The translations under genes were made by a program, and so were the position numbers. From sequence record PP989838.1: a stretch of DNA of 64,000 nucleotides. One strand, written 5' to 3'. The DNA is from Escherichia phage VTCCBPA_211. Positions 11,029 to 26,039 of this stretch are shown piece after piece. The notes under the pieces were generated by a model, which was not told where the DNA came from, searched no databases, and worked only from the letters and a program-made list of their open reading frames with translations. How positions within the stretch are numbered: position 1 is the stretch's first letter; every line of letters begins with the position of its first letter.

Positions 11029-12276
11029 ATGTCAAAGATCATTTTGGGAGACACAGGTTGTAAGGAATGTATCTCTCATGGTCGTGATAAAACCCACAAC
11101 CACATGATTCTCTTCCGTAACGAAGAGACTGGTGAGGAGTGGGGAAGTTGTAACCGTTGTGGGAATTACGAAGTGTTCGAAAAGGGCACTACACCTACTC
11201 CAAACGAGAAGAAAGAGTTATCCCCTGAAGAGTTGAGAGAAGTCTTAGATGATTGCTTAGAGCTTCCTCAGGGTGAACTTACTCGCCGTTTAATCCCTAA
11301 AGCTGTATCAGAGCGGTTTGAGTGTCGTATTGGCCTCAGTCAAACTGATGGTCAGACACCAGACAGTTACTTCTTTCCTCGTGAACGTGATGGAAACATT
11401 GTCGGATACGAGGTTAAGCTGCTAGATAGTAAGAAGTTCTATTACGTCGGCAGTGTGAAAGAAGCAGATTTGTTCGGTATGGCACAAGCTCAACGTGGAG
11501 ATGTGTACAACAAGAAGCTGTTCATTTTTGAAGACCCGCTATCCTGTATGTCAGGTTTCCATGTCCTTACAGCTTTTACAAATGCAACAAATATTAAACC
11601 AGCATGTGTTTCTTTACCGTTCGGTGCAGGTTCAATCTCTTCTGTGTTGTCTCGTAACCGAGACTTCGTAAATGGTTTTGAGGAGGTTGTGCTCTGCATG
11701 GACAACGATGATGCAGGTGAGATAGCTTTAACAAAAGGTCGTTCTTTATTCCCTCATGTTAAGTTTGCTCGTATTCCTAAAGGAACTTTCCCATACAACG
11801 GTGTGGAGAAAGAGATTAAGGATGCGAATGACATGCTTCTGTCTGGTCGTGGTCAAGAGTTATTCAACATTCTCAAGTACTCAGCAAAGCGGGAATCTCC
11901 TGCTGGAGCTGTAACAATCTTTGATTGTCTTGATGATGCTCTGAAGAAAGCGGAGTGGGGTATCCCATATCCGTGGAAGACTCTGAATGAGATGACCTTC
12001 GGTATTCGATGGGGAGAGGTGGTAGCAATTGGTGGTGGAGTAGGGAGTGGTAAAACACTCATTGCTCACGAGCTGGTTGCTCATCTGTGCTTAGAGCATG
12101 GTTTTAATGGAGGTGGCTTCTTCTTGGAAGAGAAGGTAGGCATGTCTGTTAAGAACATTGCTGGTAAGTCAGCATCAATTCCTTTCCACCGACCTGATGT
12201 TGAATATGATGAGGAGGATTTGCGTAATGAAGCACTTCGTTATGCAGACAAATTCTTCTTGTATGACAACTTCGGT
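11029..12276 (+). CDS. DNA primase-helicase (T7 gp4-like), exon 1
   Basis: N-terminal Zn finger CKEC...CNRC, TOPRIM-like VVLCMDNDDAG, Walker A GGGVGSGKT; ends at YDNFG, matching T7 gp4 HLYDSFA; strong AAGGAGGA SD. Confidence 0.8.
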
Positions 12277-12997
12277 TAACACAATGGCCGAAGTAAAACT
12301 AGGTGAATTCAGGGAAAGCTAAGTCGAAAGATATGCCAATCCTGAGCGAAGCCCTTCTCCTCCTATAGCACAAGGAGGTAATTCATGAAACGAATCACAG
12401 GATACGAAAACTACACCATTTCTGAAAACGGTGAGGTTTTTAATAACAGAGGTGCTCAATTAAAACCTTTTGTGAATAAAGGCAGAAATGAGTACTTGAG
12501 AGTGACACTAAGCTGTAGAGGGAAATCTAAACATTTTCTTGTTCACAGATTGGTTGCTCAAGAATACCTTAAAGATTTTAACCCGAATCTCCAAGTAGAC
12601 CACATGGATGGTGACAGTAGAAACAACCACCACTCAAACCTCCAAATGGTTACTTGCAAAGAAAATAACTCACTTGCTTCACAAAGAGAGTGGGAAAAGG
12701 GTGGTAATCAAAAACATTCTGATGATACAGTAAGGGAGGCCATAAGGCTTTCTCTAGATATGTCAACAGATAAGGTTGGGGAATTACTAGGTATCTCAGG
12801 GAGACAAGTCAGACGATACAGAAGTTTGACAAGTCGAAGATTTGTTGGAGAAGGGAACGTGCAGAGACTATCCGAAAGGAGTACACTGGAAGCTAATGAC
12901 AGTGGAAGCGCCTAGCCCCTTAACAGGGTGATGATATAGTCCAATCCCGTGGGAAACTGCGGGCAGTAGCCATGATGCTACGGGTAAAGGAGTTGCG
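12277..12997 (+). mobile_element. group I intron in the primase-helicase gene
   Basis: P1: exon end CTTCGGT pairs with internal guide GGCCGAAG including the U-G wobble at the splice site; P4-like TCAGGGAAAG / AATCCTGA; R-like CAGAGACTA and S-like GATGATATAGTCC; G at 12997 before the in-frame exon 2. Confidence 0.6.
12385..12915 (+). CDS. HNH homing endonuclease (intron-encoded)
   Basis: HNH-family motifs (FLVHRLVAQEYL ... DHMDGDSRNNHHSNLQ); sits inside the intron with an AAGGAGGT SD. Confidence 0.8.
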   Translation: MKRITGYENYTISENGEVFNNRGAQLKPFVNKGRNEYLRVTLSCRGKSKHFLVHRLVAQEYLKDFNPNLQVDHMDGDSRNNHHSNLQMVTCKENNSLASQREWEKGGNQKHSDDTVREAIRLSLDMSTDKVGELLGISGRQVRRYRSLTSRRFVGEGNVQRLSERSTLEANDSGSA

Positions 12998-13558
12998 TCC
13001 TTTATTGAATTATTGCAAAATGAATGGGAAGACATTAAACAGTGTATCCGTTTCTGGGTAGTTGAAAACCAGTGTAAGTTCATCATCCTTGATAACATTA
13101 CCGCTCTGGTGTCTCATTTAACACCTTCAGAGATTAACACTGAAATCAGTAAGATTGCTTCCGAGCTTGCTGGTATGTGTAAAGAGTTAGACTTTACCGC
13201 TTTCGTGCTATCTCACCTTAATGCTCCGGCAGGTGGTGCTCCTCATGAAGAAGGTGGACAGGTACGTGAAGTACAGTTCACTGGCTCTCGTTCTCTTATG
13301 CGTTGGTGTCAGTGTATCATTGGCTTTGAGCGTGACAAGCAAGCTGACGGCTTAGCTAAGAACCTCTCAGTCATTCGATTACTGAAAGAACGTAACTACG
13401 GTCAGACAGGTGTATGTTATACTAAGTATATCAGTGAAACCGGTAGACTTGTAGAAAGGGAAGACTTTGAAGTTGATGAAGATAATCCATTCGTTTTAAC
13501 TAACGGAGAGGATGCAGCTTCTCTCGTCAACCAAGCAGATGGAGCTTCACCGTGGTAA
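12998..13558 (+). CDS. DNA primase-helicase, exon 2 (helicase C-terminal part)
   Basis: [14 protein letters not shown] (Walker B-like, compare T7 DVIILDHISIV) and downstream helicase motifs; reading frame is open upstream of the track start; exon start inferred from the splice prediction. Confidence 0.7.
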
Positions 13559-14109
13559 AGAAAAAGAAGAAAGTGTTTGCATTCGATATCGAGAGTAATG
13601 CACTGTACGATGACATAACTAAAGTATGGTGTATTTATATCTTCGATGTTGAAACTGGTGAAAGGTGGGGCTATCGGCCTCACCAAATTGAAGATGGGAT
13701 TCGTAAACTTACAGAAGCAGATGTACTGGTGGGTCACAATATTATTGACTTCGACCTTTGTGCTCTGAAGAAGATGTATCCCAATCTGATTAACTATCGT
13801 TTTAACGTCTTCGACACTTTATGTCTTAGTCGATATCTTAAACCTGACCGTATTGGTGACAGTCCTGAGTATCCGAAAGGCGACCCTAGACGTGGCCCAA
13901 GAGGTCATGGTTTGAAGCAGTGGGGTGAGTTCTTAGGAGAGCTTAAGGGCGATTATGGTGAGCAAGAGGAAGCATGGGATGCTTTCACTGAAGATATGTT
14001 TACTTATTGTGAACAGGACGTTAACTTAACTGTTAAGGTTTATCTTTTCTTGTGTGAGCTCACGGGATTTGACCCTTACGACCCACCTTCATTATATTGG
14101 AAAATGTAA
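13552..14109 (+). CDS. DNA polymerase I family 3'-5' exonuclease domain protein (separately encoded)
   Basis: Exo I FDIESN, Exo [12 protein letters not shown], Exo III YCEQDV; collinear with the T7 DNA polymerase N-terminus; ends in a stop after the exo domain. Confidence 0.75.
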
Positions 14110-14110
14110 A

Positions 14111-15481
14111 ATGATTGTTATCCCGATTAACCAAATTGAAGATAAGGTTGCTCAACAACCTGATATCACTGTTGGTCGTCACTTCATTGAACAGTTGATT
14201 AACAACAATTTAGTTCCAGACGGTATCTGTCCCATCATTACTGGTGGGGCTGTTCGTGATGCTGTTCTTAACAATATAGCACCACATGACATTGATATCT
14301 TTATTGTCAGAGGGCAGCTTCCTGCTGGTAGAAACACTTTCACATCAACTGACCGTTGGCAAGCTCTTGGAAGAGAGATTGAAAGTAATGTGAAGGAATG
14401 GCTAGAGTCGCAAGATATTGAGTATTCATCACTTCTTGCTGAAGCTACAAACGAATCCTATGCGGGGGGTTCTCAATTAACATTCACTGATATTATTGAG
14501 TTTCAGTGGAATGGGGTTCGTATCCAATTCATGTTTAATTATCCTACTTCTATTGAAGAGATATTGGATAATTTTCCTATGATGTGCCGTGGTGCGATGA
14601 CTCTTGACAACCTATTCATGACTCCTCATGGATATTTGGCTATGACCGCTCCTTGCCCGGTGGTTGTTTCTAGTCGTGAAATCAGATACGTTCACAAAAA
14701 GTGGCCTAATTCACAAGTGTTAAGATTCTCAGCTCCATCTGTTGCATATCAATATATGGCCCAAACTCGATACCTTCCTACACCTCAGCCAGTTAGTCAT
14801 CTGGTTAGTGGATTAGGTCAGGTTTCTCTTATTGAGGATACAACAAGTGCTCAATATTGTGTTAACCGAGACATGAGTCTATTCTTTGGAATCCCTTATG
14901 AAGAGATTCTATTAATGTCAAGCGTTCACGGGTCTGGTCAGATTAGTGCGTATTGGTCTGAAGGGTTGACAAATTTAACGACTAACACGGGTGGTGATCT
15001 GCTTGGTCGAGAAGATGAACCTAACCGACACAATGCAATTGAAGGGGTTTTTGTAGCCCCTGCAATGCGTAGAGCACAAGAGTCACGAAGAGTAAGCCCT
15101 ACTCGTAGAGCATCTTTTGAAGAAGCTCTCGGTGTTACAAGTGATTCTATGGAGCGATGGATGGCTAGACCCTCTCGTGGTCGACCAAATGGTTTAACTG
15201 TTAGCGCACGTCAGTTCTCTGGTCAGGGTTTTGCTGTCGGTGATATCAACGCACCTGTTAGGGCTGTGTGGACTGATGAAGGTGTGGCCCAAGATGTGGT
15301 AGGCAGTCTCTCCGATCTTGATACTCCTTCTCATGAGGAACTCGCTGAGGCTGTCAGCCGCAATCTCGCTGATCGCTTTATTACTAACAACCCTGAAGTA
15401 TTAGAACCTCAAACCCGTACAGTTCGGTTTGCTGATGAAGCGGGTCGTGGAATCTCTTTTGACGTAGAAACAAATAACTAA
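14111..15481 (+). CDS. nucleotidyltransferase (CCA-adding enzyme / poly(A) polymerase head-domain-like)
   Basis: GGAVRDAVL...PHDIDIFIV matches the GGxVRD...DxD signature of class-II tRNA nucleotidyltransferases; ATG at 14111. Confidence 0.45.
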   Translation: MIVIPINQIEDKVAQQPDITVGRHFIEQLINNNLVPDGICPIITGGAVRDAVLNNIAPHDIDIFIVRGQLPAGRNTFTSTDRWQALGREIESNVKEWLESQDIEYSSLLAEATNESYAGGSQLTFTDIIEFQWNGVRIQFMFNYPTSIEEILDNFPMMCRGAMTLDNLFMTPHGYLAMTAPCPVVVSSREIRYVHKKWPNSQVLRFSAPSVAYQYMAQTRYLPTPQPVSHLVSGLGQVSLIEDTTSAQYCVNRDMSLFFGIPYEEILLMSSVHGSGQISAYWSEGLTNLTTNTGGDLLGREDEPNRHNAIEGVFVAPAMRRAQESRRVSPTRRASFEEALGVTSDSMERWMARPSRGRPNGLTVSARQFSGQGFAVGDINAPVRAVWTDEGVAQDVVGSLSDLDTPSHEELAEAVSRNLADRFITNNPEVLEPQTRTVRFADEAGRGISFDVETNN

Positions 15482-15490
15482 GGAATAAGA

Positions 15491-16024
15491 ATGAGTTTAC
15501 TAGGAAGTATTGAACTGCACGATGTAATTGACAATGGCTATCTGAATGCGGAGCATAAATATGTTAACGCTGCTAGTGTGGATATCCGTATTGGTGATAC
15601 TATCCTTGTTGAAGAACAGGCTGATGGCATCGTTGATATTGATGCGAAAGAGAATCTTCAGTGGAAGGAAGTAAAGATTCCTGAAGAGGGTTTGGTTATC
15701 ACTCCGGGTCAGTTCTTCTTGGCTCACTCCATGGAGGAGTTTAATCTTCCAGATAACATCTCAAGTCTGTTTGTCCTACGTTCATCTATGGCTCGTTGTG
15801 GTTTGAACCACCTCCACGCCGGGTGGGCAGACGCAGGGTTTAACAGCAGTAAGCTGACATTTGAGTTCCATAACGTAACCAAGCATCATAGCTTACGAGT
15901 TCGTGCTGGTATGCGTGTTGGTCAGATGGTGATGTTTGAGCACTCTCATGCAGGGGAACATTCCTATGCAGTGAAGGGTCGTTATAATAACTCTGAAGGT
16001 GTAGTTGCATCTAAAGGTGTGTAA
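15491..16024 (+). CDS. dcd: dCTP deaminase family protein
   Basis: SVDIRIG, LRSSMARCGL, GWADAGFNSSKLTFEFHN, GMRVGQMVMFE and C-terminal VVASKGV align with E. coli Dcd. Confidence 0.65.
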   Translation: MSLLGSIELHDVIDNGYLNAEHKYVNAASVDIRIGDTILVEEQADGIVDIDAKENLQWKEVKIPEEGLVITPGQFFLAHSMEEFNLPDNISSLFVLRSSMARCGLNHLHAGWADAGFNSSKLTFEFHNVTKHHSLRVRAGMRVGQMVMFEHSHAGEHSYAVKGRYNNSEGVVASKGV

Positions 16025-16231
16025 ATGACTGAAGAAGAGTTCCAAGAACTGAAAGGTTTGACTACCGAGGTTCAATTAAAAGCTATGACATTTGGTCGAG
16101 CATGTCATCGATTTGATACTTGTGATGAAAGCAGTAAAGAAGCTTGTAAGAGTTATATGGATAAGAAGCACCTTGAATGGGGTAAAGCTTCTAATGATCT
16201 TTATGACTACATGAAGGGTTTAGTAAAATGA
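16025..16231 (+). CDS. hypothetical protein (68 aa)
   Basis: ORF. Confidence 0.35.
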   Translation: MTEEEFQELKGLTTEVQLKAMTFGRACHRFDTCDESSKEACKSYMDKKHLEWGKASNDLYDYMKGLVK

Positions 16232-16425
16232 AAAAGTGGATTGTTCGTGTACATGATAACACGACTGGAGAGTTAGTAGCTGTAGATTTTGTTAATACTC
16301 GAGACCACGCCCGTAGGGTCAAAAACCAATACAAGTCTACTTTTAGACTCAATAAGGTTACAATAGGAAAAGCTTTCGTAAACAGTGAAGGTGCTTTTCT
16401 TTCCAATAGTAAGGTTTATTATTAA
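16228..16425 (+). CDS. small paralogous protein family member A (65 aa)
   Basis: Shares W..., TR..AR..KK and C-terminal YY pattern with the next two ORFs and with 18319..18528. Confidence 0.45.
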   Translation: MKKWIVRVHDNTTGELVAVDFVNTRDHARRVKNQYKSTFRLNKVTIGKAFVNSEGAFLSNSKVYY

Positions 16426-16634
16426 TGAGACCAATCACTATGAGAAAATTTTGGTTAGCAAAGATTGAGTGGGCATCAGGTGGCATGACTATGACTGCAC
16501 TACCCACTCGCCAACAAGCTCGAGATTTTAAAAAGACTATGCTTACTGGTGACGTGGTCAATAGTATCAGTATCCATAAGGCCAAGGAGTATTCTTCTGG
16601 TCGTGTTTATATCAGCGGAAAGGTGCATTACTAA
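16425..16634 (+). CDS. small paralogous protein family member B (69 aa)
   Basis: Paralog pattern; start overlaps upstream stop (TAATGA). Confidence 0.45.
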   Translation: MRPITMRKFWLAKIEWASGGMTMTALPTRQQARDFKKTMLTGDVVNSISIHKAKEYSSGRVYISGKVHY

Positions 16635-16843
16635 TGAAAAAGATGTGGGCTATTCATGTTGTTTGGGATCTTGAGCAACACATGAGAAAAGATAGCATCA
16701 AATTGTTTGACACTCGCAAAGAGGCTCGTATTGCTAAGAAACAGTTGAAGACTCTGGGCACAATAGTAAAAAGCGCTGACATACATCGCTGGTATGAAGG
16801 CCCTAACACTGGTTCTTTTATGTCTAAAGTAATTTACTACTGA
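16634..16843 (+). CDS. small paralogous protein family member C (69 aa)
   Basis: Paralog pattern; coupled start. Confidence 0.45.
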   Translation: MKKMWAIHVVWDLEQHMRKDSIKLFDTRKEARIAKKQLKTLGTIVKSADIHRWYEGPNTGSFMSKVIYY

Positions 16844-16867
16844 TTGGTAGTAGATATGATAACTCTC

Positions 16868-16876
16868 AAATGTATA
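16868..16876 (+). promoter_or_regulatory. promoter-like motif AAATGTATA (near-consensus TAATGTATA)
   Basis: In intergenic region about 40 nt upstream of the ATG at 16916. Confidence 0.4.
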
Positions 16877-16915
16877 TAGAGTACAATAAGAATTTGTATT
16901 TTACAGGAGAGAGTT

Positions 16916-17245
16916 ATGTTAGATTTGAGTAAAGTGGCCCCGCCCACTGAAGAGATTACAAAATCCAAGGTGATGCAACAGTTTTATCATCGTGATATGC
17001 TTGGTCGCTTTATCAAGAATCGTGATGTTGTTGCTTGGTCTATTGGTAATCAGGGGTATCTGTTGAAGGTTCTTCAGGTTACAGGTTCAACTGCTAAGCG
17101 AGTTAAGGTGTATGACCCTGAAATGGGGCGTTCTAAGTCAGTAGACCCACAGAACTGCATCGTAATTACCCAGCAGGTAATGGATAATATTGCACGTAAC
17201 GTTGCTAACTCAGTTGAACTTGATGGAGAAAACCCAAATGCATAA
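16916..17245 (+). CDS. hypothetical protein (109 aa)
   Basis: ORF downstream of a promoter-like AAATGTATA motif. Confidence 0.4.
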   Translation: MLDLSKVAPPTEEITKSKVMQQFYHRDMLGRFIKNRDVVAWSIGNQGYLLKVLQVTGSTAKRVKVYDPEMGRSKSVDPQNCIVITQQVMDNIARNVANSVELDGENPNA

Positions 17246-17801
17246 GAATGTCTTTGATTTACCTGAGATTGGTCGTGACAGTTATAGCATGTTAGACCGG
17301 TCCGACCTATCAATCTCTCGCCTTGAAACGATGCAAGGTATGATTAGTGGAAACAGCCTAGAACACATCCTGAGCTGCTTACAAGCTAACATGGAACTCT
17401 TGCATATCAAAGCTAAAAACTACCACTGGAACGTCTCTGGTGCAGGATTTCAGGGTGTTCATGGTATGTTTGACGAGCTGGAAGATTACGCACGACAGGT
17501 AGGAGATCGTATTGCTGAACGTATGCGTTACCACTGTGTTAAAGTGGATGCTACAGCAGCTAACTACCTCTCTCATGCTTGGTTCTCAGAGGGTAATGCT
17601 GATCTAGACATGGACGGTATGCTCTCTGATATGTGCATGACCTTGATGTGTATTATTGAGAAGATGGATGAGTTTGATGGCGATTTAGCCACCTACCCTG
17701 TCGATCAGAGTATGCTTCAAGAAATTAATGAAGGTCTTGGCAAGTATTGCTACTTCGTCAAGAGCAACATGTCCCACTCAAGTGGTGATGTGTCTTACTA
17801 A
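17238..17801 (+). CDS. Dps-like ferritin-fold protein
   Basis: LHIKAKNYHWNVSGAGFQGVHGMFDELEDYARQVGDRIAERM matches the Dps signature; ATG at 17238 with GGAGA SD. Confidence 0.6.
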   Translation: MHKNVFDLPEIGRDSYSMLDRSDLSISRLETMQGMISGNSLEHILSCLQANMELLHIKAKNYHWNVSGAGFQGVHGMFDELEDYARQVGDRIAERMRYHCVKVDATAANYLSHAWFSEGNADLDMDGMLSDMCMTLMCIIEKMDEFDGDLATYPVDQSMLQEINEGLGKYCYFVKSNMSHSSGDVSY

Positions 17802-17861
17802 AACCTCCGCCCTGTCTCCTAACCCGAGGTGGGGCGAACTTATTTATAAGGATATAGATAT

Positions 17862-18041
17862 ATGTTATCAGCAATCGTATGGGGTATTTGGGCTATCTTT
17901 ATTGGTGGTGGTATTTATTGGGCTTCTGGTAAGCTTATTGAAGAAACCCCTGATAAGAAAGGTGAGATTCAAACAGCATCAACTATCATGGTTATCGTAG
18001 CTGTTGTTATCCCATTCCTGCTTCACCTCCTGACTGCATAA
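17862..18041 (+). CDS. small two-helix membrane protein (59 aa)
   Basis: Two hydrophobic segments (AIVWGIWAIFIGGGIYWA and IMVIVAVVIPFLLHLL); preferred over the overlapping 17728..18000 frame, which runs into the Dps gene. Confidence 0.3.
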   Translation: MLSAIVWGIWAIFIGGGIYWASGKLIEETPDKKGEIQTASTIMVIVAVVIPFLLHLLTA

Positions 18042-18049
18042 GGATTTAC

Positions 18050-18322
18050 ATGACTAAAGTAATTAAGTTTTATAGTGATCAGTGTGCTCCATGTAAAGCA
18101 ATGGCTCCTACCTTTGAGAAGGTTGTTAAGGAGTTTGATGTAGAAGTGGAAGAGATTAACATCCTTGAAGGTGATGGTCGTGAACAAGCTGTTAAGTATG
18201 GTGTACGAAGTATCCCTGCTTTCGTTGTACCTGACCGTAACAGTGGTGCACACTACAGCCTCTCTGGTATGCAGACCGAAGCAAACCTGAAAGCATTCTT
18301 AACTACTGCCCTAGGTGTTTGA
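18050..18322 (+). CDS. thioredoxin
   Basis: CAPC active-site motif in a thioredoxin-sized protein (90 aa). Confidence 0.7.
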   Translation: MTKVIKFYSDQCAPCKAMAPTFEKVVKEFDVEVEEINILEGDGREQAVKYGVRSIPAFVVPDRNSGAHYSLSGMQTEANLKAFLTTALGV

Positions 18323-18528
18323 TTATGAAAAAATATTGGACGGTGGTATATTACCTCTACCAAGACCCGGCTATACCTGTTACAGAGCACTTTGCTACTC
18401 GTAAAGATGCTCGCCGTTTTAAGAAGGCTCTTAAGATGGCCCCAAAGATTTATAGTAAAGTAAGCTTACATAAATCAACATTGTCAGAGATGGGAACCTT
18501 AGTGGTTTATTATGTAAAAGAATATTAA
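18319..18528 (+). CDS. small paralogous protein family member D (69 aa)
   Basis: Same pattern as 16228-16843 ORFs (TRKDARRFKK ... VVYY). Confidence 0.45.
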   Translation: MIMKKYWTVVYYLYQDPAIPVTEHFATRKDARRFKKALKMAPKIYSKVSLHKSTLSEMGTLVVYYVKEY

Positions 18529-18543
18529 TAAGGAAATTCACGG

Positions 18544-19200
18544 ATGAATGAACAATTACAAGCAACATTAATCGAAGCTATGGGAAGTGATCGTAGCGTA
18601 GTAAACGCAGCTCGAGTTTCCTTTGGCGTAACCCGTGAAGGTGATTTAAATGAACGTGATGAACGTCTCATCAACTTCCTCGCAAGAGAGAAGCATGTTA
18701 CTCCATTCCGACACCCACAAGTCAGTTTCCGATGCAAAGCACCTATCGCAATTGCGAGACAGTTGGGCAAGCATCAGGTTGGATTCTCGTGGAACGAAAT
18801 GTCCCGGCGGTATAAAGATGGAGCAGTTGAAGTCTTCATCCCTAAAGAGATTTTTGCGAGACCTTCGGACCTCCATGCAGGTTCAGGGGTTCAACTCATC
18901 GATGGAGAACGAGCTGAAGCGTTAATGTTGATTAATGATGCATATGAAGCTTCTCTAGCAGCATATGACAAGTTGATTGAATTCATTGCACCAGAGCAAG
19001 CTCGATTTGTTCTTCCTCAGGGGATGATCACTGAGTGGGTATGGACTGGTTCTTTGTATGGCTGGTTTGAGTTATGTCGTCAGCGACTCTCCTCTCACGC
19101 TCAATATGAAGTTCGAGTGTTTGCTAAATCTCTGGATGAAGAGATGGCTAAACTTTACCCAATCTCATGGGCAGCTCTGAAGAAAACTTTGGAGAATTAA
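18544..19200 (+). CDS. thyX: flavin-dependent thymidylate synthase ThyX
   Basis: ThyX-like architecture with an RQRLSSHAQ segment corresponding to the ThyX RHR...S motif. Confidence 0.65.
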   Translation: MNEQLQATLIEAMGSDRSVVNAARVSFGVTREGDLNERDERLINFLAREKHVTPFRHPQVSFRCKAPIAIARQLGKHQVGFSWNEMSRRYKDGAVEVFIPKEIFARPSDLHAGSGVQLIDGERAEALMLINDAYEASLAAYDKLIEFIAPEQARFVLPQGMITEWVWTGSLYGWFELCRQRLSSHAQYEVRVFAKSLDEEMAKLYPISWAALKKTLEN

Positions 19201-19334
19201 TGTTGGAAGAAGATGACGATGTGTTCTGCACCAAGTGTGGGATGACAGTTGATGATGCATATGACCCAAGTGTAGAAATCTGCCCTTGTTGTGGAGTATG
19301 TGAATATTGCTGTTCCCACAACTCAGAGGATTAG
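19200..19334 (+). CDS. small Cys-rich zinc-ribbon protein (44 aa)
   Basis: CTKCG ... CPCCGVCEYCC; start overlaps thyX stop. Confidence 0.3.
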   Translation: MLEEDDDVFCTKCGMTVDDAYDPSVEICPCCGVCEYCCSHNSED

Positions 19335-19346
19335 CAGGAATTTCTG

Positions 19347-19580
19347 ATGAAAATCAAACATATTACAGATATTCAGGAGGCATTTAGGATGCTTCCTCGA
19401 AGAGAGAAGGATAAGATTAAAAAGCTTATTCAAGTTTATGGTCATACATCTAAAGATGATGTAGACTATATGCCTTCTACTTTCGTAGAGTGTGGGATTG
19501 CTCGCGGTTTCACATTCGACCATAAAGTGTTTCAGCAATTCGTTGACCACTGGAGAAAAGATGGAAAAGAAAGTCTGTAG
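19347..19580 (+). CDS. hypothetical protein (77 aa)
   Basis: ORF. Confidence 0.35.
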   Translation: MKIKHITDIQEAFRMLPRREKDKIKKLIQVYGHTSKDDVDYMPSTFVECGIARGFTFDHKVFQQFVDHWRKDGKESL

Positions 19581-19746
19581 CTTCTGTAAGAAAGAAAAGC
19601 CGATCATCAATTTTAAGCCCAATCCTGTGACTGGTTTGTCTCATGTTATGTGCCACTCCTGTAGGACATACCTTGAAACAAAGCACACTATCAATAGGTT
19701 GCACTATTATCACCCAACAACATTCAAATTTAAGGTTGTGAAATGA
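19561..19746 (+). CDS. small zinc-finger-like protein (61 aa)
   Basis: ATG at 19561; CSFC...CHSC pairs. Confidence 0.3.
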   Translation: MEKKVCSFCKKEKPIINFKPNPVTGLSHVMCHSCRTYLETKHTINRLHYYHPTTFKFKVVK

Positions 19747-19946
19747 AAACTTTGTGGACTCTTGACTGCCAAGACGAGGACGGAGAGCGTTGGACTTGGA
19801 AATATTTCCTAGGGAAACCGACACCTGATAATCCTGCTTTGGATTGTGCTTCATATGAAGACGCCAAGAAATTGGTAAACGGAGAGAAAGTTCGGTCTCC
19901 GGATAATGAAGTTATGTACTTTTTAACAGAACGGAAATTTTCATAA
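19743..19946 (+). CDS. hypothetical protein (67 aa)
   Basis: ORF. Confidence 0.35.
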   Translation: MKTLWTLDCQDEDGERWTWKYFLGKPTPDNPALDCASYEDAKKLVNGEKVRSPDNEVMYFLTERKFS

Positions 19947-20269
19947 TGATCGATGGTAATACATTTAGGACTTCAAATGGAAGTGAAATAAGTCCCGCTG
20001 AAGTAATCAATCGGCATAGAAGGCAATTGATCATCCATTCCTATTTGTATTACTGGTTGGATGACCCTATCTGGTCTGATGATAAATGGCAACAAGTTGC
20101 TAATGATCTAGTGGAGCTACAAGCCCTGTATCCAGAACCTACCGGAGTCTTTGACAACGAGTTTAAAGATTGGGATGGTTCTACAGGTATGCATCTCCCA
20201 CATAACGAAGCTGTTGCTTGTATGGCGACAGCTGTTTACAGACTTCATAAAGAGGTTAACGTCGCATGA
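19946..20269 (+). CDS. hypothetical protein (107 aa)
   Basis: ORF. Confidence 0.4.
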   Translation: MIDGNTFRTSNGSEISPAEVINRHRRQLIIHSYLYYWLDDPIWSDDKWQQVANDLVELQALYPEPTGVFDNEFKDWDGSTGMHLPHNEAVACMATAVYRLHKEVNVA

Positions 20270-20449
20270 GCGTAGTTTATGTTCTAGAAAGATACGCTGA
20301 AGATCGCAACAGTATTGTTGCCATATTTAAATATGCCCGGATGTTGAGGACATTTTGAATGTGACTCACTTAACTGATGTTGATAAAATCAAAGACCTCA
20401 TCAGGAATGACAATGCCCACATAGGTGACTCTCTGTGGTCTCTTACTGA

Positions 20450-20647
20450 ATGGACATTGTGGTGAAGTGCTCTAAATGTGAAGGAACAAACCTTCATTTA
20501 AGTAACAAGGTTATCAGAGAGCTTGCCAAAGGCTCTCCAACCAAAGGGAAGAACAAACGATTTACTAACGTCAGGGTTTACACAGCAATCTGTAAAGATT
20601 GTTTAACTACTGAGTGTCATTACGAAGAAATTGGAGAGCGTAAATGA
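20450..20647 (+). CDS. small zinc-ribbon protein (65 aa)
   Basis: CSKCEG ... CKDC. Confidence 0.35.
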   Translation: MDIVVKCSKCEGTNLHLSNKVIRELAKGSPTKGKNKRFTNVRVYTAICKDCLTTECHYEEIGERK

Positions 20648-21387
20648 GTCGTCGTCAATCACGGAAAGAATCACGGAAAGACCTTCGTCGGGAAGCACTT
20701 GTCACTCGTAAGGGTAAGCGAGAGTTTGAAGAGGTGGTTTTAGCAAAGCCTGTAGTCCCTCAGAACCAGTTTCAGTCTGAGCTACTCAATGCTATTAAGA
20801 CTAAACAAGTTGTGTTCACAGACGCTCCTGCGGGCTGTGGTAAGACCTTTGTAATCACTTCCACAGTTATTGATGCACTGAAGAGCGGTAAGATTCAGAA
20901 GATCATTCTGAGTCGACCTTCGGTTGGCATGGGCAATTCTCTTGGGCTACTTCCGGGAGGAATGCGTGAGAAGTTTGAACCATACCTGATGCCTATCATT
21001 GATGTTATCACTCAGCGATATGGTAAGGGGTTCTATGAATGCCAACTTGGTAACAGTAACATTGAGTTCGTACCTCTGGAATATCTCCGTGGTCGTTCTT
21101 TCAATGATGCTATTGTTATTGTTGATGAGTTCCAGAATACCACTAAAGATGAAGCCTTCTCAATCATGACTCGATTGGGAGAAACCTCTCAGCTGTTCTG
21201 CATGGGTGATACAAACCAGCATGATATGCGTGGTCGTGAGAGTGGTCTTACTTGGGCTACTAATTTTATTGATGAACACGATCTGTATGAGTTCGCTGAG
21301 ATTGTAGACGGCGAATCAGATGACATTGTTCGTTCTGGTTTCTGTAAAGCCATTGTTAAAGCTATGGAAAAGGAACAAGATAAATGA
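20644..21387 (+). CDS. phoH: PhoH-like P-loop ATPase
   Basis: Walker A DAPAGCGKTF and Walker B-like IVIVDEFQN, PhoH-like length. Confidence 0.65.
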   Translation: MSRRQSRKESRKDLRREALVTRKGKREFEEVVLAKPVVPQNQFQSELLNAIKTKQVVFTDAPAGCGKTFVITSTVIDALKSGKIQKIILSRPSVGMGNSLGLLPGGMREKFEPYLMPIIDVITQRYGKGFYECQLGNSNIEFVPLEYLRGRSFNDAIVIVDEFQNTTKDEAFSIMTRLGETSQLFCMGDTNQHDMRGRESGLTWATNFIDEHDLYEFAEIVDGESDDIVRSGFCKAIVKAMEKEQDK

Positions 21388-21569
21388 AAGTCGCTTTAGT
21401 TATCCGAGATTGTGGTGATGGTTCAGCAACCATCGACTTCTACAAAAATATCGAACGAGCGTGTTTTGAGTGTGAAGAGTTCAATGAAGACACCTGCATG
21501 AATGATGGAGAACCTACTATCATTGACGTTCCTGATGATTTTGTACCACCGGGAGGGTGGAGTGAATAG
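21384..21569 (+). CDS. hypothetical protein (61 aa)
   Basis: ORF. Confidence 0.3.
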   Translation: MKVALVIRDCGDGSATIDFYKNIERACFECEEFNEDTCMNDGEPTIIDVPDDFVPPGGWSE

Positions 21570-21759
21570 CACTCAAGAGTTAGTGATAGAAGAGATTAAA
21601 GCTCAGATAGTTGATAAACTCTCTATCAGGGTTGATTCTAAAGACACCAAATGCTCTGGTATATTGAAGATAGAACTTCTTTACAATGGAGAAGTTATTT
21701 CCTTTGATGAGGTATATGCCTCTGATATTAAATACTTAGCAGAGTTTTAATAGCATCCA

Positions 21760-21768
21760 TAATGTATA
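21760..21768 (+). promoter_or_regulatory. promoter motif TAATGTATA
   Basis: Exact motif 36 nt upstream of the ATG at 21805. Confidence 0.5.
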
Positions 21769-21804
21769 CTCCTTAGTGTACACTGATATATTAAGGAGTT
21801 TTAA

Positions 21805-22128
21805 ATGGCAGATCATGTAGGAAAGAGAGATTATGCACAAGAAAGACGTACCGCAATTGCCCGTGGTGAAACAGGCGTTGGGAGCAAGAGCGGAGATGCT
21901 CAGCGCCACCGTGCACGTCGCATCGTTGAAAAGCGCGATGGAAAAGCTGCTGTCAGAGGTAAAGATGTTGGACACAAACGAGCCATCAAGTCAGGAGGCT
22001 CTAATGCGTCAAGCAACTTACGTGTTGAAACAGTCAGCGGAAATCGTTCAGCTGGCGGCAAAAGTGGAGATCGAGCTGGGAAGGCAGCTGGTGCTGCTAA
22101 GCGAAAAGGAGCTTTAAGCTCATCGTAA
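21805..22128 (+). CDS. highly basic Lys/Arg/Gly/Ala-rich protein (107 aa)
   Basis: Own TAATGTATA motif upstream, AAGGAG SD, strong terminator downstream; preferred over the overlapping 21833..22117 frame. Confidence 0.5.
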   Translation: MADHVGKRDYAQERRTAIARGETGVGSKSGDAQRHRARRIVEKRDGKAAVRGKDVGHKRAIKSGGSNASSNLRVETVSGNRSAGGKSGDRAGKAAGAAKRKGALSSS

Positions 22129-22133
22129 TATAA

Positions 22134-22163
22134 GGCTACCCAAATGGGTGGCCTTTTCTTTTA
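22134..22163 (+). terminator. rho-independent terminator
   Basis: GGCTACCC-AAAT-GGGTGGCC hairpin followed by TTTTCTTTT. Confidence 0.6.
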
Positions 22164-22196
22164 TATAAACCAAATTAAACTTCTTAGGTAATAAAT

Positions 22197-22448
22197 ATGT
22201 CTATTGTAAAATCTGTAAATATCATTGATGTAATGTCTAACAATCGTATGGTTAAATGGAAGTTCACCAATAATCACGGCATTGCTAATATCATTGCAAA
22301 CCAGATTAGTCATAACCCAAAAACAGCTCGTACTAACGTAATCCTACGTGGTGCTGATGGTAAATTCATTTCTTATAAGAATAAAGGTGTAGAGAAAGAA
22401 TTCCGTGTTGCAGTAGAAAACCTCATCCCATTCCCTAAAGGATTTTAA
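22197..22448 (+). CDS. hypothetical protein, paralog pair member 1 (83 aa)
   Basis: Shares KTARTNVILRGADGKFISY...LIPFPKGF with the next ORF. Confidence 0.45.
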   Translation: MSIVKSVNIIDVMSNNRMVKWKFTNNHGIANIIANQISHNPKTARTNVILRGADGKFISYKNKGVEKEFRVAVENLIPFPKGF

Positions 22449-22449
22449 T

Positions 22450-22734
22450 ATGAATAAATTAGCTATGGTTCAAATTCGAGACACTTTCCCTCTGCGTGAG
22501 AATATGAAACCACGCACTTGGTCTTACCTGCTAGCTGAGAGTAAGACTATCAACAAATATTTTGTAGAGATTGGTTGTATCCCAACCAGTATTACTTTGC
22601 TTCCTCATAAAACAGCTAGAACTCATGTGATGCTACGTGACAGCAAAGGTAAGTTTATCTCTTACCGTGATGAACGAATCAATAGCGATATCAAAAATGC
22701 TATGGAATCTTTAATGCCGTTCCCAAAAGGTTAA
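22450..22734 (+). CDS. hypothetical protein, paralog pair member 2 (94 aa)
   Basis: KTARTHVMLRDSKGKFISY...LMPFPKG. Confidence 0.45.
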   Translation: MNKLAMVQIRDTFPLRENMKPRTWSYLLAESKTINKYFVEIGCIPTSITLLPHKTARTHVMLRDSKGKFISYRDERINSDIKNAMESLMPFPKG

Positions 22735-22897
22735 GTTATGAAAGAGTACATCTATGTAGGACAGCGCTGGTTTGGTGATGAATGGGAAGGTGGTTACAGC
22801 GTTGTGAAAGCTTTTAAGTCTGAAGAAGATGCCAAGGCATGGGTCTTAAAAGATGACGTTGGCGAGAGAACTTACATTGAAGTAGAGGTGGAGTAAA

Positions 22898-23320
22898 ATG
22901 CCATTACCAACTAGACACCAAAACCGTTTCCTAGTTCTTAAGTGGGATGATATCGAAATGAATCTCACTGAACATGAACTGGATTTGTTCCATGAGCTTT
23001 TGTCAGAGATTCGCTCTGGTATTCCTGAACGTCAGTATGTAGTTATCAGTGATAAACATCCTCAAGAGTTTGAAGAAGCTTGGGGTATGAAGTTAGCTTA
23101 CATTCAGAGAGCTATCCGAGAAAGAGAAGAAGTCGCTAACCAAAGGGTTGTGGCTCATTTAGTACGAGAGCAACCTCGTGAAGCTAGGGCTAACCATGCA
23201 CCACCTCCACCTACTCCTCGGATAGTTGTTAACGGGGCGGTTAGGGCTTACAGTTATGAAGCTACCATATCAGATATGATAGAAGATAACCAAGCATTTA
23301 CAGATTTACTTTACCAATAA
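22898..23320 (+). CDS. hypothetical protein (140 aa)
   Basis: ORF. Confidence 0.4.
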   Translation: MPLPTRHQNRFLVLKWDDIEMNLTEHELDLFHELLSEIRSGIPERQYVVISDKHPQEFEEAWGMKLAYIQRAIREREEVANQRVVAHLVREQPREARANHAPPPPTPRIVVNGAVRAYSYEATISDMIEDNQAFTDLLYQ

Positions 23321-23336
23321 TTTAAAGGAGTATAAA

Positions 23337-24682
23337 GTGAGCAACCCGGACGCTCTTCCATTTTTGACAGAGATGACTGTCGCTGATATAATCTCTAAGC
23401 AAGCAAAGCACGGAGTGAGTTTCAACCGAAGAAATGCTCGGTGGTATGTTCACCTCCTTAAAGAGATTATTGTTAATATTGACAGAGAGTTGATTCCTCT
23501 CTTACCTAAGATGAGATTAGACGGCTCTACTTATATGAAGCCGTTTAAGAAGTCTGGAGCTTTACAGAAGTGGCCTCAAGCTTATTGTGATAGGGTTGGG
23601 CTGAAGAGAGAAGATATTGGTGGAGCTTTCACCTGTGTCGAATATGTAGACTTTGACCCATCGAAAGATGCACGAGTTAAAGAAGCTCTTATGGATGAGG
23701 GCTTTCTTCCTCCAGAGTTTAATGTATCTAAGAAGCCTTGGAATACTTTCGAAATTAAGAAAGATATGAGAAAGTATGGAACATACCAAGCATGGTATAC
23801 TGCTTGGATGCGAGGCAATGCTAAGCAGAAGCAGACAGCCGAGATGGTTGACGCTGATATTAAGAAGTTCTTAGAAAAGCATTTCAGGTTTAAAACTAAG
23901 AACTATATGAAGGCTTACGTATTTGGTTTGGGATTAAACCCTAATCGTCGTAATCCTGTAACGTTTGATGAGATTAAGAAAGCGCTAGCCACATCAAACA
24001 AGTGGCCTACAGCTCCTACAAACCTCGAGGAGACTCTTGAAGAAGGGTTAGGGGGTGAGCTAGGGAGTGTCGGAAGTTTGCTTAAGAGACGCGTTGTAGC
24101 GGCTCACAGGCTAGGTCTTATCAGTGGACTTATAGCAAAGGAACGCGAAGATGGTAAACTTTCGGCAGAAGCTAACAGCTGCGCTACGCCGACTTTTCGA
24201 TTCAAACATCGTATCGTGGTTAATATTCCCTCCCGTGGTCTGTTTGGTCACGAGTGTCGCAGTTTGTTTGAGTCTGACTATAACTCAGACAGTGATCACT
24301 CTCGTCCTTTCGTTATTACTAACGCTGTTCCTGATGGTTGTTATATACGAAAAGGTACTAACGTAATTTACGAGAAAGGTAAGCCGGGGAAGAAAGACAA
24401 ACCTGTAGGCGCTTACAAATATTACATACCCGCTGGTAAAGAAGTATTCTTAGGGTATGATGGTTCTGGACTTGAACTTCGTATGTTAGTGCATTATCTT
24501 GTGAAAGAGTGCCTTGACATGATGGAAGAAGCCAAAGCAGAGAACGATAAAATTAAGTATCTAAGGGCTGAGAAAGGTTTAGAGGCTGCTTATACTTATC
24601 GAGAGGTTCTTCTCTCAGGTGATATCCATTCCCACAACCAGAAACTAGCTGGCCTACCAACTAGAGATAATGCAAAGACGTT
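23337..24682 (+). CDS. DNA polymerase I family polymerase domain, exon 1
   Basis: Motif A LGYDGSGLELRML and start of motif B RDNAKTF, collinear with T7 DNA polymerase; GTG start with AAAGGAG SD. Confidence 0.75.
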
Positions 24683-25370
24683 TAACACAATGGGCGTCTA
24701 TAAATTCCTTTAATTCGGTGGACATCTAGAACAGATAATACCGAGCCAAGCCATCCAATCTGCCTTGAAGACAAGGAGGTGGATTATGATTTGCAGGATT
24801 TGTAAAGAAGATAAAAGCGAAGACAATTTCCACAGAAACAGAACAAACGTGACTGGACTAGACTACAGGTGTAAAGCTTGTAGGAGAGAAGAAGCACGAA
24901 TTGGAAGAGAGAGCAATTACTTCCAACACTACTGTAGAGGAAAGAAATCTGAATGTAAGATAAAGGGTTATGATTTTGACTTAACTCCAGAGTTCTTAGA
25001 AGAGATTTGGACAGGATATTGTCCAATATTTGGTGTAGAAATCTCAAGAGCTTCGGAAGGAAGAGGATCTCACAACTCAGCACATTTGGACAGAATAGAT
25101 TCAAGTAAGGGTTACCTAATAGGTAACGTATCTTGGATTAGCGGCAGAGCAAACCGTATAAAATATGATGCTACTGCTAAAGAGCTTAGATCTATTGCAG
25201 ATTGGATGGAAGGTGTAACGACTAGTCGTGATGAGTTTAGCGACGTAGGGCCAAGCGGCTCGAAACAAGGAACCTCTTAAAAGAGGAAGAGATAGTCTGC
25301 TCTGCATGGGGACATGCAGCAGTTCATAAGAGAACGGGGGGAGTGGTAGCGTACTCCCTTGAACATCAGG
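24683..25370 (+). mobile_element. group I intron in the DNA polymerase gene
   Basis: Begins with the same 11-mer TAACACAATGG as the helicase intron; guide GGGCGTCT pairs with exon end AGACGTT; R-like AACGACTAG and S-like AAGAGATAGTCT; G at 25370; splicing restores KTF-IYGFLYGAG. Confidence 0.6.
24786..25280 (+). CDS. HNH homing endonuclease (intron-encoded)
   Basis: HNH motifs (HLDRIDSSKGY ... NVSWISGRANRIK), Cys pairs; ATG at 24786 with AAGGAGGTGG SD. Confidence 0.75.
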   Translation: MICRICKEDKSEDNFHRNRTNVTGLDYRCKACRREEARIGRESNYFQHYCRGKKSECKIKGYDFDLTPEFLEEIWTGYCPIFGVEISRASEGRGSHNSAHLDRIDSSKGYLIGNVSWISGRANRIKYDATAKELRSIADWMEGVTTSRDEFSDVGPSGSKQGTS

Positions 25371-25869
25371 TATCTATGGATTTCTATATGGGGCAGGCGC
25401 AGCTAAGATTGGAGAGATTGTTGGAGGAGGCGCTCAAGAGGGTGAAATTCTCAGAGAACGTTTCTTAGCAGAATGCCCTTGTATCCCAATTGTCTTGGAG
25501 AGAGTACAAGCTCGTGCAGAAACAGGCACTCTTGAAGGTGTGGATGGTCGTAAGTTGACCATGAGACGGGATGCCACTGGTAAAGTTATGGTTCATAAAG
25601 CACTAAACACTTTACTTCAGAGTGCGGGTGCTATTGTCATGAAATATTCTATTCTCTTCACAAACAAGTGGGTAGATCAGCAGAACATTAGGGGTAACAA
25701 AGTAATTGACTACCATGATGAAGCTCAGTGGTCTGTTAACCGTAACGATGTTGATAAGATGAAAAAGATAGCTGAGACTTGTGTCAAGAAGGCGGGTGAG
25801 TACCTAAACATGCACTGTGAGCTAGCTTCTGATTGTAAAATCGGACTGAATTGGATGCAAACTCACTAA
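25371..25869 (+). CDS. DNA polymerase I family polymerase domain, exon 2
   Basis: In-frame YGFLYGAGAAKIGEIVGGG (rest of motif B) and motif C VIDYHDEAQW; the reading frame is open upstream of the track ORF. Confidence 0.7.
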
Positions 25870-26039
25870 ACACAGAACTGAAAGAATAGAATACAAATGA
25901 ACTAGTCTTATTGATTAGTTCATAATAAGGAGATTGAAGTGGAAGAGATGCCATCGGATTGGTGTTATCGTCAGAGCGCCATCTGTAATGAACAAGGACG
26001 TCCTGATGAAGCTGAGTTTTATTTAGAACTAGCTGAACT

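Follow-up and report, generated by a model that had tools for sequence, protein, structure and literature searches.

How does a phage proofread its DNA when the exonuclease and polymerase halves of its T7-like replicase are encoded in two genes some 9 kb apart? The question is raised by Escherichia phage VTCCBPA_211 (PP989838.1), of which a stretch of 64,000 nucleotides (the window) was analysed; positions below count from its first letter. The phage is a Kuravirus (phiEco32-like) coliphage, its DNA being 92-94% identical to that of Kuravirus phages, with matching gene order. An earlier note on this DNA had suggested that proofreading is supplied in trans, or that the exonuclease has another role, either of which would be a reasonable reading of the arrangement. 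The explanation favored here, to which we assign a probability of roughly 0.78, is that a T7-type replicase is made as two polypeptides following an old fission in the interdomain linker, that the polymerase is completed by intron splicing, and that the two proteins form a non-covalent exonuclease-polymerase heterodimer that proofreads.

The exonuclease gene

13552..14109, + strand: stand-alone 3'-5' exonuclease gene, predicted DEDDy/DnaQ-like, 185 aa, GTG start, TAA stop
11029..13558, + strand: primase/helicase gene in two exons, 11029..12276 and 13016..13558 (blastn against the uninterrupted gene of phage Paul)

The exonuclease domain is, as the earlier note had it, a stand-alone ORF of 185 amino acids with a genuine stop and recognizable Exo I, II and III motifs. 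The gene opens with a GTG, and its first 7 nt are also the last of the primase/helicase gene, stop included. The product is homologous to phiEco32 gp74 and to the T7 gp5 N-terminal domain; it matches Pfam DNA_pol_A_exo1 (PF01612) with an E value of 3e-8 and 34.1 bits (curated cut-off 23.6), and the PHROG family "DNA polymerase exonuclease subunit" with E 2e-79. The sequence alone matches T7 gp5 residues 3-178 (E 5.5e-12) and a profile (HMM) of its family matches residues 2-189 (E 8e-38). The collinearity with the T7 gp5 N-terminus that had been claimed earlier is borne out by an alignment reaching T7 residues ~2-203.

In Exo I, D12 and E14 align with D5 and E7 of T7, Exo II is represented by H62-N63...D68, and Exo III by Y152-x3-D156. 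The catalytic motifs of this half are directly observed to be intact, with D12, E14, N63, D68 and D156 invariant, and Y152 98% conserved, in 55 members of the stand-alone family. An AlphaFold2 (AF2) model has a pLDDT of 94.8, and its top 27 Foldseek matches are all to the T7 gp5 exonuclease domain. Sequence and model together place the protein among the DEDDy (DnaQ-like) exonucleases of family A polymerases, which have an RNase H-like fold, and exonuclease activity is predicted for it.

The polymerase gene and its intron

23337..25869, + strand: DNA polymerase gene, intron-interrupted, with a GTG start and an AAGGAG Shine-Dalgarno
23337..24682, + strand: exon 1, the first 448 codons and two bases of codon 449; it encodes the thumb, motif A of the palm and the opening half of motif B, up to ...RDNAKTF (alignment to Paul and SGF2, whose genes are uninterrupted; splice reconstruction)
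24683..25370, + strand: probable group I-type intron in motif B, 688 nt (insertion absent from Paul, SGF2 and L011)
24786..25280, + strand: putative intron-encoded endonuclease ORF, 164 aa, HNH/endonuclease VII-like (PHROG matches), with its own AAGGAGG ribosome-binding site
25371..25869, + strand: exon 2, encoding the remainder of motif B (IYGFLYGAG), the fingers, motif C (HDE) and the C-terminus (Paul/SGF2 alignment; splice reconstruction)
12277..13015, + strand: second putative group I-type intron, 739 nt, in the primase/helicase gene (blastn against Paul; RF00028 matches of 32.1 and 27.7 bits)
12385..12915, + strand: HNH_3/NUMOD4 ORF in the primase/helicase intron (Pfam HNH_3 and NUMOD4)

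The polymerase gene had been described as intron-interrupted, and the 688-nt insertion is indeed missing from Paul and SGF2. By alignment to Paul and SGF2, exon 2 starts at 25371 and not at 25495, the first TTG of the ORF. Precise removal of the intron restores the 1845-nt ORF of relatives, encoding 614 amino acids with the length and register of the uninterrupted genes of Paul, SGF2 and L011 (a metagenomic Kuravirus contig). The match of the spliced product to PF00476 spans the exon junction (E 8e-21, 74.8 bits; cut-off 34.3). The spliced product matches T7 gp5 residues 490-697 (E 2.5e-36), and overall it covers T7 residues ~207 to 703-704, plus insertions. Motifs A (YDGSGLELR), B (RDNAKTF followed across the junction by IYGFLYGAG) and C (YHDEAQ) align with those of T7, and the motif B tyrosine at the position of T7 Y526 is present; across 77 homologs the key residues of the three motifs vary little or not at all, and the catalytic motifs of this half too are directly observed to be intact. 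Structure was modelled with AF2 on the uninterrupted protein P0060, 97% identical, as a stand-in for the spliced polymerase; the pLDDT is 92.6, and T7 gp5 is the best match among solved structures (Foldseek E 2e-26). By its motifs and model the 614-aa product is assigned as a T7-like family A DNA polymerase with motifs A, B and C intact.

The boundaries of the intron are exact. The P1 pairing can be read directly from the sequence, with exon bases AGACGUU (24676-24682) paired with GGCGUCU (24693-24699); the final exon base is a U paired to G in P1, and the final intron base is G (25370). A conserved core element, GAAGAGAUAGUC, is present. In a search of 741 nt the Rfam model RF00028 matched at 19.4 bits (E 0.017), short of its gathering score of 50; the 495-nt ORF within the intron lowers this value. 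These features and the sub-threshold Rfam score make group I type probable. The 164-aa ORF has PHROG matches to endonuclease (E 7e-33), endonuclease VII (E 7e-26) and HNH (E 2e-9) families, and a Pfam search with it gave no match. Phages PT2 and PKM.Hi.22.6 have the same 5' end of the intron at this very position, and insertion here is indicated also by many metagenomic exon-1 products of ~450 amino acids. The motif-B intron, apparently mobile, is common to fused and split T7-type polymerases. As a separate observation, the polymerase gene of LUZ24 breaks off close to this intron site.

The intron of the primase/helicase gene has the same pattern of a P1 exon-U:G pairing and a 3'-terminal G. 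An origin of both introns by duplication of a single element was considered and rejected, as they have in common only the first ~14 nt, which are the P1 loop TAACACAATGG. A further candidate concerned the 3' third of the polymerase gene, which is a different allele from that of Paul and SGF2 and might have been a co-conversion tract of the intron. This finds no support, since intronless L011 shares the same allele at 97-100% identity.

The interval between the two genes

18050..18322, + strand: phage-encoded thioredoxin, between the exonuclease and polymerase genes (Pfam Thioredoxin, E 2.5e-13)

From the exonuclease stop to the polymerase start at 23337 are 9,227 nt, in agreement with the earlier estimate of about 9 kb. 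The interval had been said to consist of nucleotide-metabolism genes, which is only partly right; most of the roughly 27 ORFs are small and have no function assigned. The recognizable genes are dCTP deaminase, ThyX, thioredoxin, PhoH, a nucleotidyltransferase, a ferritin-like DNA-binding protein and an Nlig-Ia domain protein. The interval genes are conserved and have their own ribosome-binding sites.

Two terminator-like hairpins and one phage-promoter-like motif lie between the two genes, so that the exonuclease and polymerase may be expressed separately. A putative sigma70 promoter of perfect sequence is at 23364..23392. The phiEco32 promoter motif, TAATGTATA, occurs in five exact copies, which alone are suggestive; with one mismatch allowed it is not enriched (20 matches against 18 expected).

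The phage thioredoxin may serve the T7-like polymerase as a processivity partner, a hypothesis already published for the related phage Privateer (PMC7881722). As to a loop for thioredoxin binding, residues 64-135 of the polymerase give a weak alignment with residues 290-357 of T7.

Conservation of the split in relatives

The split is real and conserved, and is not an artefact. A stand-alone exonuclease is present in every close relative and in metagenomic relatives down to ~35% identity; none of 59 homologs (97% to ~34% identity) is longer than 247 amino acids, and all near-full-length polymerase homologs, again down to ~35% identity, are without an exonuclease domain. A contiguous exonuclease-polymerase gene is absent from Paul, SGF2, L011, the distant relatives L007, L010 and L008, Vp_R1 and LUZ24. 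The exonuclease gene and a polymerase-only gene are found on one contig, in the same order, in L011, L007, Paul, SGF2 and LUZ24, and those relatives compared whose exonuclease is ~50% identical keep the gene order. In L010 and Vp_R1 the exonuclease again follows the primase/helicase; the polymerase of L010 lies beyond the stretch compared, and that of Vp_R1 was not found in the 19 kb from the exonuclease gene to the end of the record.

The position of the break, at the interdomain linker, is conserved as well in relatives of the Kuravirus/Grimontviridae type, and LUZ24 shares it for the start of the polymerase. In the present phage the exonuclease reaches to about residue 203 of T7 and the polymerase picks up at about residue 207, with nothing missing or duplicated. 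The exonuclease ends at T7 203-204 in BUCT695, L007, L010 and Vp_R1, and the polymerase starts at ~T7 207 in BUCT695, L007 and LUZ24. Two of the checks that the earlier note had proposed came out in its favor: the two halves align to T7 gp5 with the break at the interdomain linker, and close relatives have the same split.

The note had also named what would speak against a true split, namely an intron or recoding event that joins 14109 to a downstream exon, or a rearranged assembly, with relatives having a single contiguous gene. A cryptic intron, recoding or protein trans-splicing could in principle unite the halves, and the one observation pointing that way is that two replication genes of this phage contain introns. 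Such a join, or an assembly rearrangement, is scarcely credible, the same split being present in numerous phages and metagenomic contigs whose sequences were determined independently. Stops in the exonuclease frame, just before 13552 and repeatedly after 14109, exclude frameshift or read-through, and the next ORF is an unrelated nucleotidyltransferase in a different frame. A long intron is excluded, as an RNA-family search gave no intron-like match near 14110, at the 3' end of the exonuclease gene, and 9 kb of conserved genes intervene. A split intein is likewise excluded, neither protein having residues to spare; there is no room for intein halves because the exonuclease fold uses all 185 residues and the polymerase starts at the domain boundary.

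Conservation extends to the upstream junction. The exonuclease gene begins within, or directly at, the end of the primase/helicase gene in the present phage and in six relatives (Paul, SGF2, L007, L010, L011 and LUZ24). This points to coupled translation, with exonuclease and primase/helicase made in matching amounts, and it could be taken to mean that the exonuclease reaches the replisome through the primase/helicase and not by docking on the polymerase. This we judge very improbable. T7-like phages also have gene 5 after gene 4, so that retention of an ancestral order explains the adjacency with no new interaction; moreover, Vp_R1 has an 81-nt gap between the two genes, and in L008 another ORF lies between them.

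How the two proteins may work together

The favored explanation, a proofreading heterodimer of exonuclease and polymerase, would run as follows. Long ago an ancestral gene would have been split in its interdomain linker, at about residues 204-207 of T7 gp5, into an exonuclease gene and a polymerase gene. The exonuclease gene would have kept its place beside the primase/helicase gene, overlapping its stop codon, and the polymerase gene would have come to have its own start codon and Shine-Dalgarno, with ~9 kb of accessory genes now between the two. RNA splicing of the mobile motif-B intron would yield the 614-aa polymerase, and the 185-aa and 614-aa proteins would then bind each other non-covalently to make an enzyme like T7 gp5, its smaller subunit proofreading the 3' end made by the larger. 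The gene architecture and its conservation are matters of observation; for the mechanism, a non-covalent heterodimer that proofreads as T7 gp5 does is the most likely.

A different view would have the exonuclease act as a free enzyme outside proofreading, for example in host DNA degradation, recombination or end processing, with the polymerase working without editing. The genes are, after all, 9 kb apart and may be in different transcription units, and the Privateer paper lists the protein simply among "two exonucleases" (PMC7881722). We nevertheless regard this as unlikely: apart from its own stand-alone family, the protein is closest to the proofreading domains of T7-like polymerases and is collinear with them, the break falls exactly at the domain linker, and an exonuclease-less T7-like polymerase accompanies the protein in every genome in which both genes could be examined. 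In addition, the exonuclease domain is structurally required by family A polymerases (PMC10201439).

The fission itself may or may not have been neutral. There is a slim chance that it was not, and that translational coupling of the exonuclease to the primase/helicase, with the polymerase in a separate downstream transcription unit, sets the ratio of exonuclease to polymerase or tethers proofreading to the helicase. Were this so, replication fidelity would be tunable during infection.

Comparison with known systems

Separate exonuclease and polymerase genes are already known for phiEco32, all Kuravirus-like phages and the LUZ24 group. The separation is stated explicitly for Kuravirus-like phages (PMC9965538), and PMC3517423, citing Savalia 2008, reports the split for phiEco32 and the LUZ24 group. 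In the literature the two-gene arrangement is already a hallmark of phages of the phiEco32/Kuravirus-like, Grimontviridae and LUZ24-like groups, and the family already has a name in annotation libraries. phiEco32 gp74 and its polymerase, and the pairs of Kuravirus-like phages (Paul, SGF2, NJ01 and YF01 gp70/gp49), are like those described here in length (185 and 614 amino acids), order after the primase/helicase and spacing of ~9 kb. The present phage differs from Paul and SGF2, which lack both introns, in its 688-nt polymerase intron and 739-nt primase/helicase intron, and from L011 at least in having the polymerase intron.

In the LUZ24 group (Bruynoghevirus) the corresponding products are gp25, "DNA polymerase part I", and gp34, "part II". 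There also the exonuclease gene overlaps the primase/helicase stop, the polymerase-only protein starts at ~T7 207, and upstream ATP-grasp/GGACT genes are held in common; the LUZ24 polymerase breaks off within motif B. The exonuclease-polymerase gap, however, is only 2.3 kb, and the proteins are ~33% identical to those of the present phage.

Among solved structures, T7 gp5 is the nearest to either half. The two systems agree in Exo I-III and in motifs A, B and C, IYGFLYGAG is identical, and thioredoxin is available in both systems, being phage-encoded here. T7 gp5 is a single chain of 704 amino acids, whereas the present phage has two chains, of 185 and 614; its polymerase has ~95 extra ordered residues in the thumb/palm region, and the T7 TGR motif is TFR.

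For the motif-B intron, the closest parallels are the group I introns of PhiI/W31, SPO1 and Pf-WMP3 (PMC3428280), which are likewise of a self-splicing type and have an HNH ORF, a location in a highly conserved polA region, a P1 exon U:G pair and a 3'-terminal G. The sites given in that paper are 674, 676 and 881; the present site, in motif B, corresponds to about E. coli Pol I residue 760.

As functional analogies only, two enzymes of other families resemble the proposed heterodimer. In the family C E. coli Pol III alpha-epsilon pair (PMC2528190) the proofreading part is a separate, tightly bound subunit, and in the split family B polymerase of PhiKZ (DNAP-N/DNAP-C; PMC13648687) it is the N-terminal part that is separate and tightly bound.

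A parallel within T7-like family A is the split PolA of S-SBP1-like cyanophages, in which exonuclease and polymerase domains are again separate gene products and for which AlphaFold2 predicts that the exonuclease-polymerase complex is preserved (PMC10201439, Czernecki et al. 2023). That fission is recent and due to a +1 frameshift, and its genes are adjacent and overlapping; the fission considered here is old and common to several phage groups, with genes kilobases apart. The present phage, its two genes not being adjacent, does not belong to the recent S-SBP1 type. It is a usable example for questions of the exonuclease-polymerase complex, proofreading in trans and thioredoxin-dependent processivity.

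A separately encoded exonuclease

The polymerase of this phage is encoded in pieces within a region (bases 13000-26000) that matched about 200 phage records in a DNA search. The best of these come from Kuravirus (phiEco32-like, Gordonclarkvirinae) coliphages, among them Paul, SGF2, NJ01 and 172-1, with 92-94% DNA identity over 82-93% of the query. The region corresponds to the module for replication and nucleotide metabolism in a Kuravirus-type phage, with everything on the + strand. The parts of the polymerase are:

13552..14109, +, exonuclease gene (exo), 185 aa, GTG start with GGAG ahead of it
23337..24682, +, exon 1 of the polymerase gene (pol), by alignment with Paul and SGF2
24683..25370, +, pol intron, 688 nt
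25371..25869, +, pol exon 2, by the same alignment

Exo shares its first 7 nt with the end of the primase/helicase gene, TAA stop included, and the two are probably translationally coupled. Stop codons occur in the exo frame directly upstream of 13552 and repeatedly past 14109, and the next ORF (ATG at 14111), a nucleotidyltransferase, is in a different frame; exo thus stands as a complete gene with its own stop, as the earlier note had held.

The exo protein matches Pfam DNA_pol_A_exo1 above threshold, two PHROG families of "DNA polymerase exonuclease subunit" (E 2e-79 and 8e-38), and the single-chain T7 polymerase, gp5, over residues 3-178 (E 5.5e-12); a profile built from exo homologs aligned with T7 gp5 over residues 2-189 (E 8e-38). 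The AlphaFold2 model has a pLDDT of 94.8, and its best 27 solved-structure matches in Foldseek are all T7 gp5. Among 55 family members, the catalytic residues of Exo I (D12/E14), Exo II (N63/D68) and Exo III (Y152/D156) are invariant or nearly so. These residues and the gp5 alignments bear out the motifs, and the collinearity with the T7 N-terminus, that had been read from the sequence.

The polymerase gene and the introns

Alignment of pol with its 1845-nt counterparts in Paul and SGF2, which are uninterrupted, revealed a single insertion of 688 nt, confirming that the gene is intron-interrupted. Its boundaries were set by group I convention, with U as the final base of the exon and G as that of the intron. 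Exon 2 had been placed at 25495, where the open frame merely has its first TTG; the exon in fact begins 124 nt earlier, at 25371. The spliced ORF is 1845 nt (614 aa), aligns with T7 gp5 through motifs A, B and C (E 2.5e-36), and matches Pfam DNA_pol_A (74.8 bits) across the splice junction; the exon-1 ORF alone gave no match in the Pfam search. An uninterrupted protein (P0060) 97% identical to pol was modeled in its place with a pLDDT of 92.6 and T7 gp5 as best structural match. Relative to gp5, pol gains about 95 residues around its thumb and palm, which the model folds with confidence.

The insertion cuts motif B between ...RDNAKTF and IYGFLYGAG. Its P1 helix would be 7 bp (exon AGACGUU, guide GGCGUCU), with the final exon U able to pair with G; the last intron base is G, a conserved GAAGAGAUAGUC core element is followed by a hairpin, and a 164-aa HNH/endonuclease VII-like ORF has its own ribosome-binding site. 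The U-G pairing, 3' G, core element and HNH-type ORF together favour a group I assignment; against the Rfam group I model the intron scored 19.4 bits (E 0.017, small search), which is below threshold. Aeromonas phage PT2 and Grimontviridae phage PKM.Hi.22.6 share this intron 5' end, at the same codon, the LUZ24 pol gene likewise breaks off inside motif B, and many metagenomic "exon 1" products of about 450 aa share the end point of exon 1 here. PT2 is T7-like with a fused exo-pol gene, whereas the pol carrying this intron here is split. By these shared sites, the motif-B intron is a mobile family moving between fused and split T7-type polymerases. Intron sites described previously (674, 676 and 881, E. 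coli Pol I numbering; PMC3428280) differ from it. Beside the insertion site, the gene differs from that of the Kuravirus contig L011 by only two synonymous changes (AAG ACG vs. AAA ACT), which give stronger P1 pairing.

The 3' third of pol (~24500..25869, CDS nt ~1170-1845) has 57-83% identity to Paul and SGF2 and 97-100% to L011, so that two distinct alleles of this segment exist among Kuraviruses; since L011 is intronless, intron and mosaicism are not linked.

A second group I-type intron (12277..13015, 739 nt) lies in the primase/helicase gene (11029..13558), and contains this ORF:

12385..12915, HNH_3/NUMOD4 endonuclease

Its scores against Rfam RF00028 (32.1 and 27.7 bits) are below threshold, and in P1 exon CUUCGGU is paired with GCCGAAG. 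The first 11 nt (TAACACAATGG) are identical in the two introns and the remainder is unrelated. Introns are nowhere mentioned in the 2023 Kuravirus comparative paper.

Position and conservation of the break

Local alignments with T7 gp5 place the exo C-terminus at T7 residue 203-204 in this phage, Vp_R1, BUCT695 and two metagenomic relatives (the LUZ24 exo C-terminus aligns less cleanly), and the pol start at about residue 207 in this phage, LUZ24, BUCT695 and metagenomic relatives, with an N-terminal W-x-x-x-F/L aligned with T7 W207-SESLEAV. Jointly, exo and pol span the entire T7 frame. By these alignments the break is at the linker joining the exonuclease and polymerase domains of gp5; in a distant metagenomic lineage with a 247-aa exo (L008) it seems to lie slightly further in.

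In Paul and SGF2 the annotation puts an exonuclease of 184-185 aa (labelled "DNA polymerase" in SGF2) and a polymerase of 614 aa at the corresponding positions. Among 5.8 billion proteins searched, 59 exo homologs came up at identities from 97% to ~34%, the longest 247 aa. Near-full-length pol matches down to ~35% identity are all exo-less proteins, and fused architectures occur only among more distant, partial matches. In L011 (pol 97% identical) exo is ~9 kb upstream of pol. In the more distant contig L007 (exo 51% identical), exo abuts primase/helicase and is followed by dCTP deaminase, ThyX and, 8.3 kb downstream, pol; L010 (49%) shares this order as far as ThyX, the stretch examined ending before pol. 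LUZ24 has the same order with an exo-pol gap of 2.3 kb. In Vp_R1 exo follows primase/helicase, and no pol gene was found within 19 kb of it. Judged by homology and gene order, the split is real and conserved.

Splitting of exo and pol into adjacent genes has been described for T7-like PolAs of the S-SBP1 type, with a preserved complex predicted by AlphaFold2 (PMC10201439). The split seen here, as a matter of genome layout, had already been published for phiEco32 and the LUZ24 group (PMC3517423) and for Kuravirus-like phages (PMC9965538). The earlier note's observation holds, with corrections on two points, where exon 2 starts and what the intervening DNA contains: the spacing of 9 kb stood, and its description as nucleotide-metabolism genes held only in part. 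The interpretation as a split polymerase is supported.

L011 also has a separate 5'-3' exonuclease (PF02739) further downstream, at 18472..19293, so that each of the three Pol I-type activities has its own polypeptide in this phage group, a point also made in PMC9965538.

Surrounding genes and putative transcription signals

Four paralogous ORFs of 65-69 aa (16228..16425, 16425..16634, 16634..16843 and 18319..18528), three in tandem, have a common TRxxARxxKK-like motif and in most cases an aromatic YY/HY end. A tandem pair of paralogs, 22197..22448 (83 aa) and 22450..22734 (94 aa), has in common the motif KTART.V.LR...GKFISY......PFPKG. The 107-aa product of 19946..20269, labelled "NAD-dependent DNA ligase" in relatives, consists of nothing but an Nlig-Ia domain, which binds NAD+ (Pfam E 2.7e-35), and cannot act as a ligase by itself.

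Between exo and pol are two hairpins resembling terminators (17808..17836 and 22132..22155) and, at 21760 (+), an exact TAATGTATA motif; the two genes may therefore be transcribed separately. We take TAATGTATA to be the phiEco32 sigma-factor (gp36-dependent) promoter element. The window has five exact copies (21760 and 28303 on +; 28231, 37927 and 54808 on -), with ~0.5-1 expected by chance for a 9-mer, and no enrichment with one mismatch allowed.

A perfect sigma70 consensus promoter (23364..23392, +; TTGACA, 17 nt, TATAAT, extended -10 TG) sits 27 nt within the pol ORF, the sole 12/12 match in the 64-kb window, both strands included. Paul, SGF2 and L011 have it unchanged, and more distant relatives lack it; transcripts starting there would be without the pol start codon.

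Likely origin and function of the split enzyme

Because gene 5 follows gene 4 in T7-type phages, the simplest history would be fission at the linker, after which accessory genes accumulated between the two parts while exo kept its ancestral position. Most likely, we infer, the two polypeptides reassemble as a T7 gp5-like enzyme whose small subunit edits 3' mismatches. Strict conservation of catalytic residues in the stand-alone exo family argues for this mechanism. It is further supported by the exo-less T7-like pol that accompanies exo wherever both genes are examinable, by the clean break at a domain linker, and by the reported structural need of family A polymerases for the exo domain (PMC10201439). 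No biochemical test of a Kuravirus or LUZ24 exo/pol pair was found in the literature.

The replication module also includes, with its T7-like polymerase:

18050..18322, phage-encoded thioredoxin

This may be a dedicated processivity factor, a role proposed for thioredoxin in the related phage Privateer (PMC7881722); T7 borrows thioredoxin from its host, whereas this phage has its own gene. For reassembly and editing by exo and pol, Pol III alpha-epsilon and the split PolB of PhiKZ are supporting, working precedents from other polymerase families.
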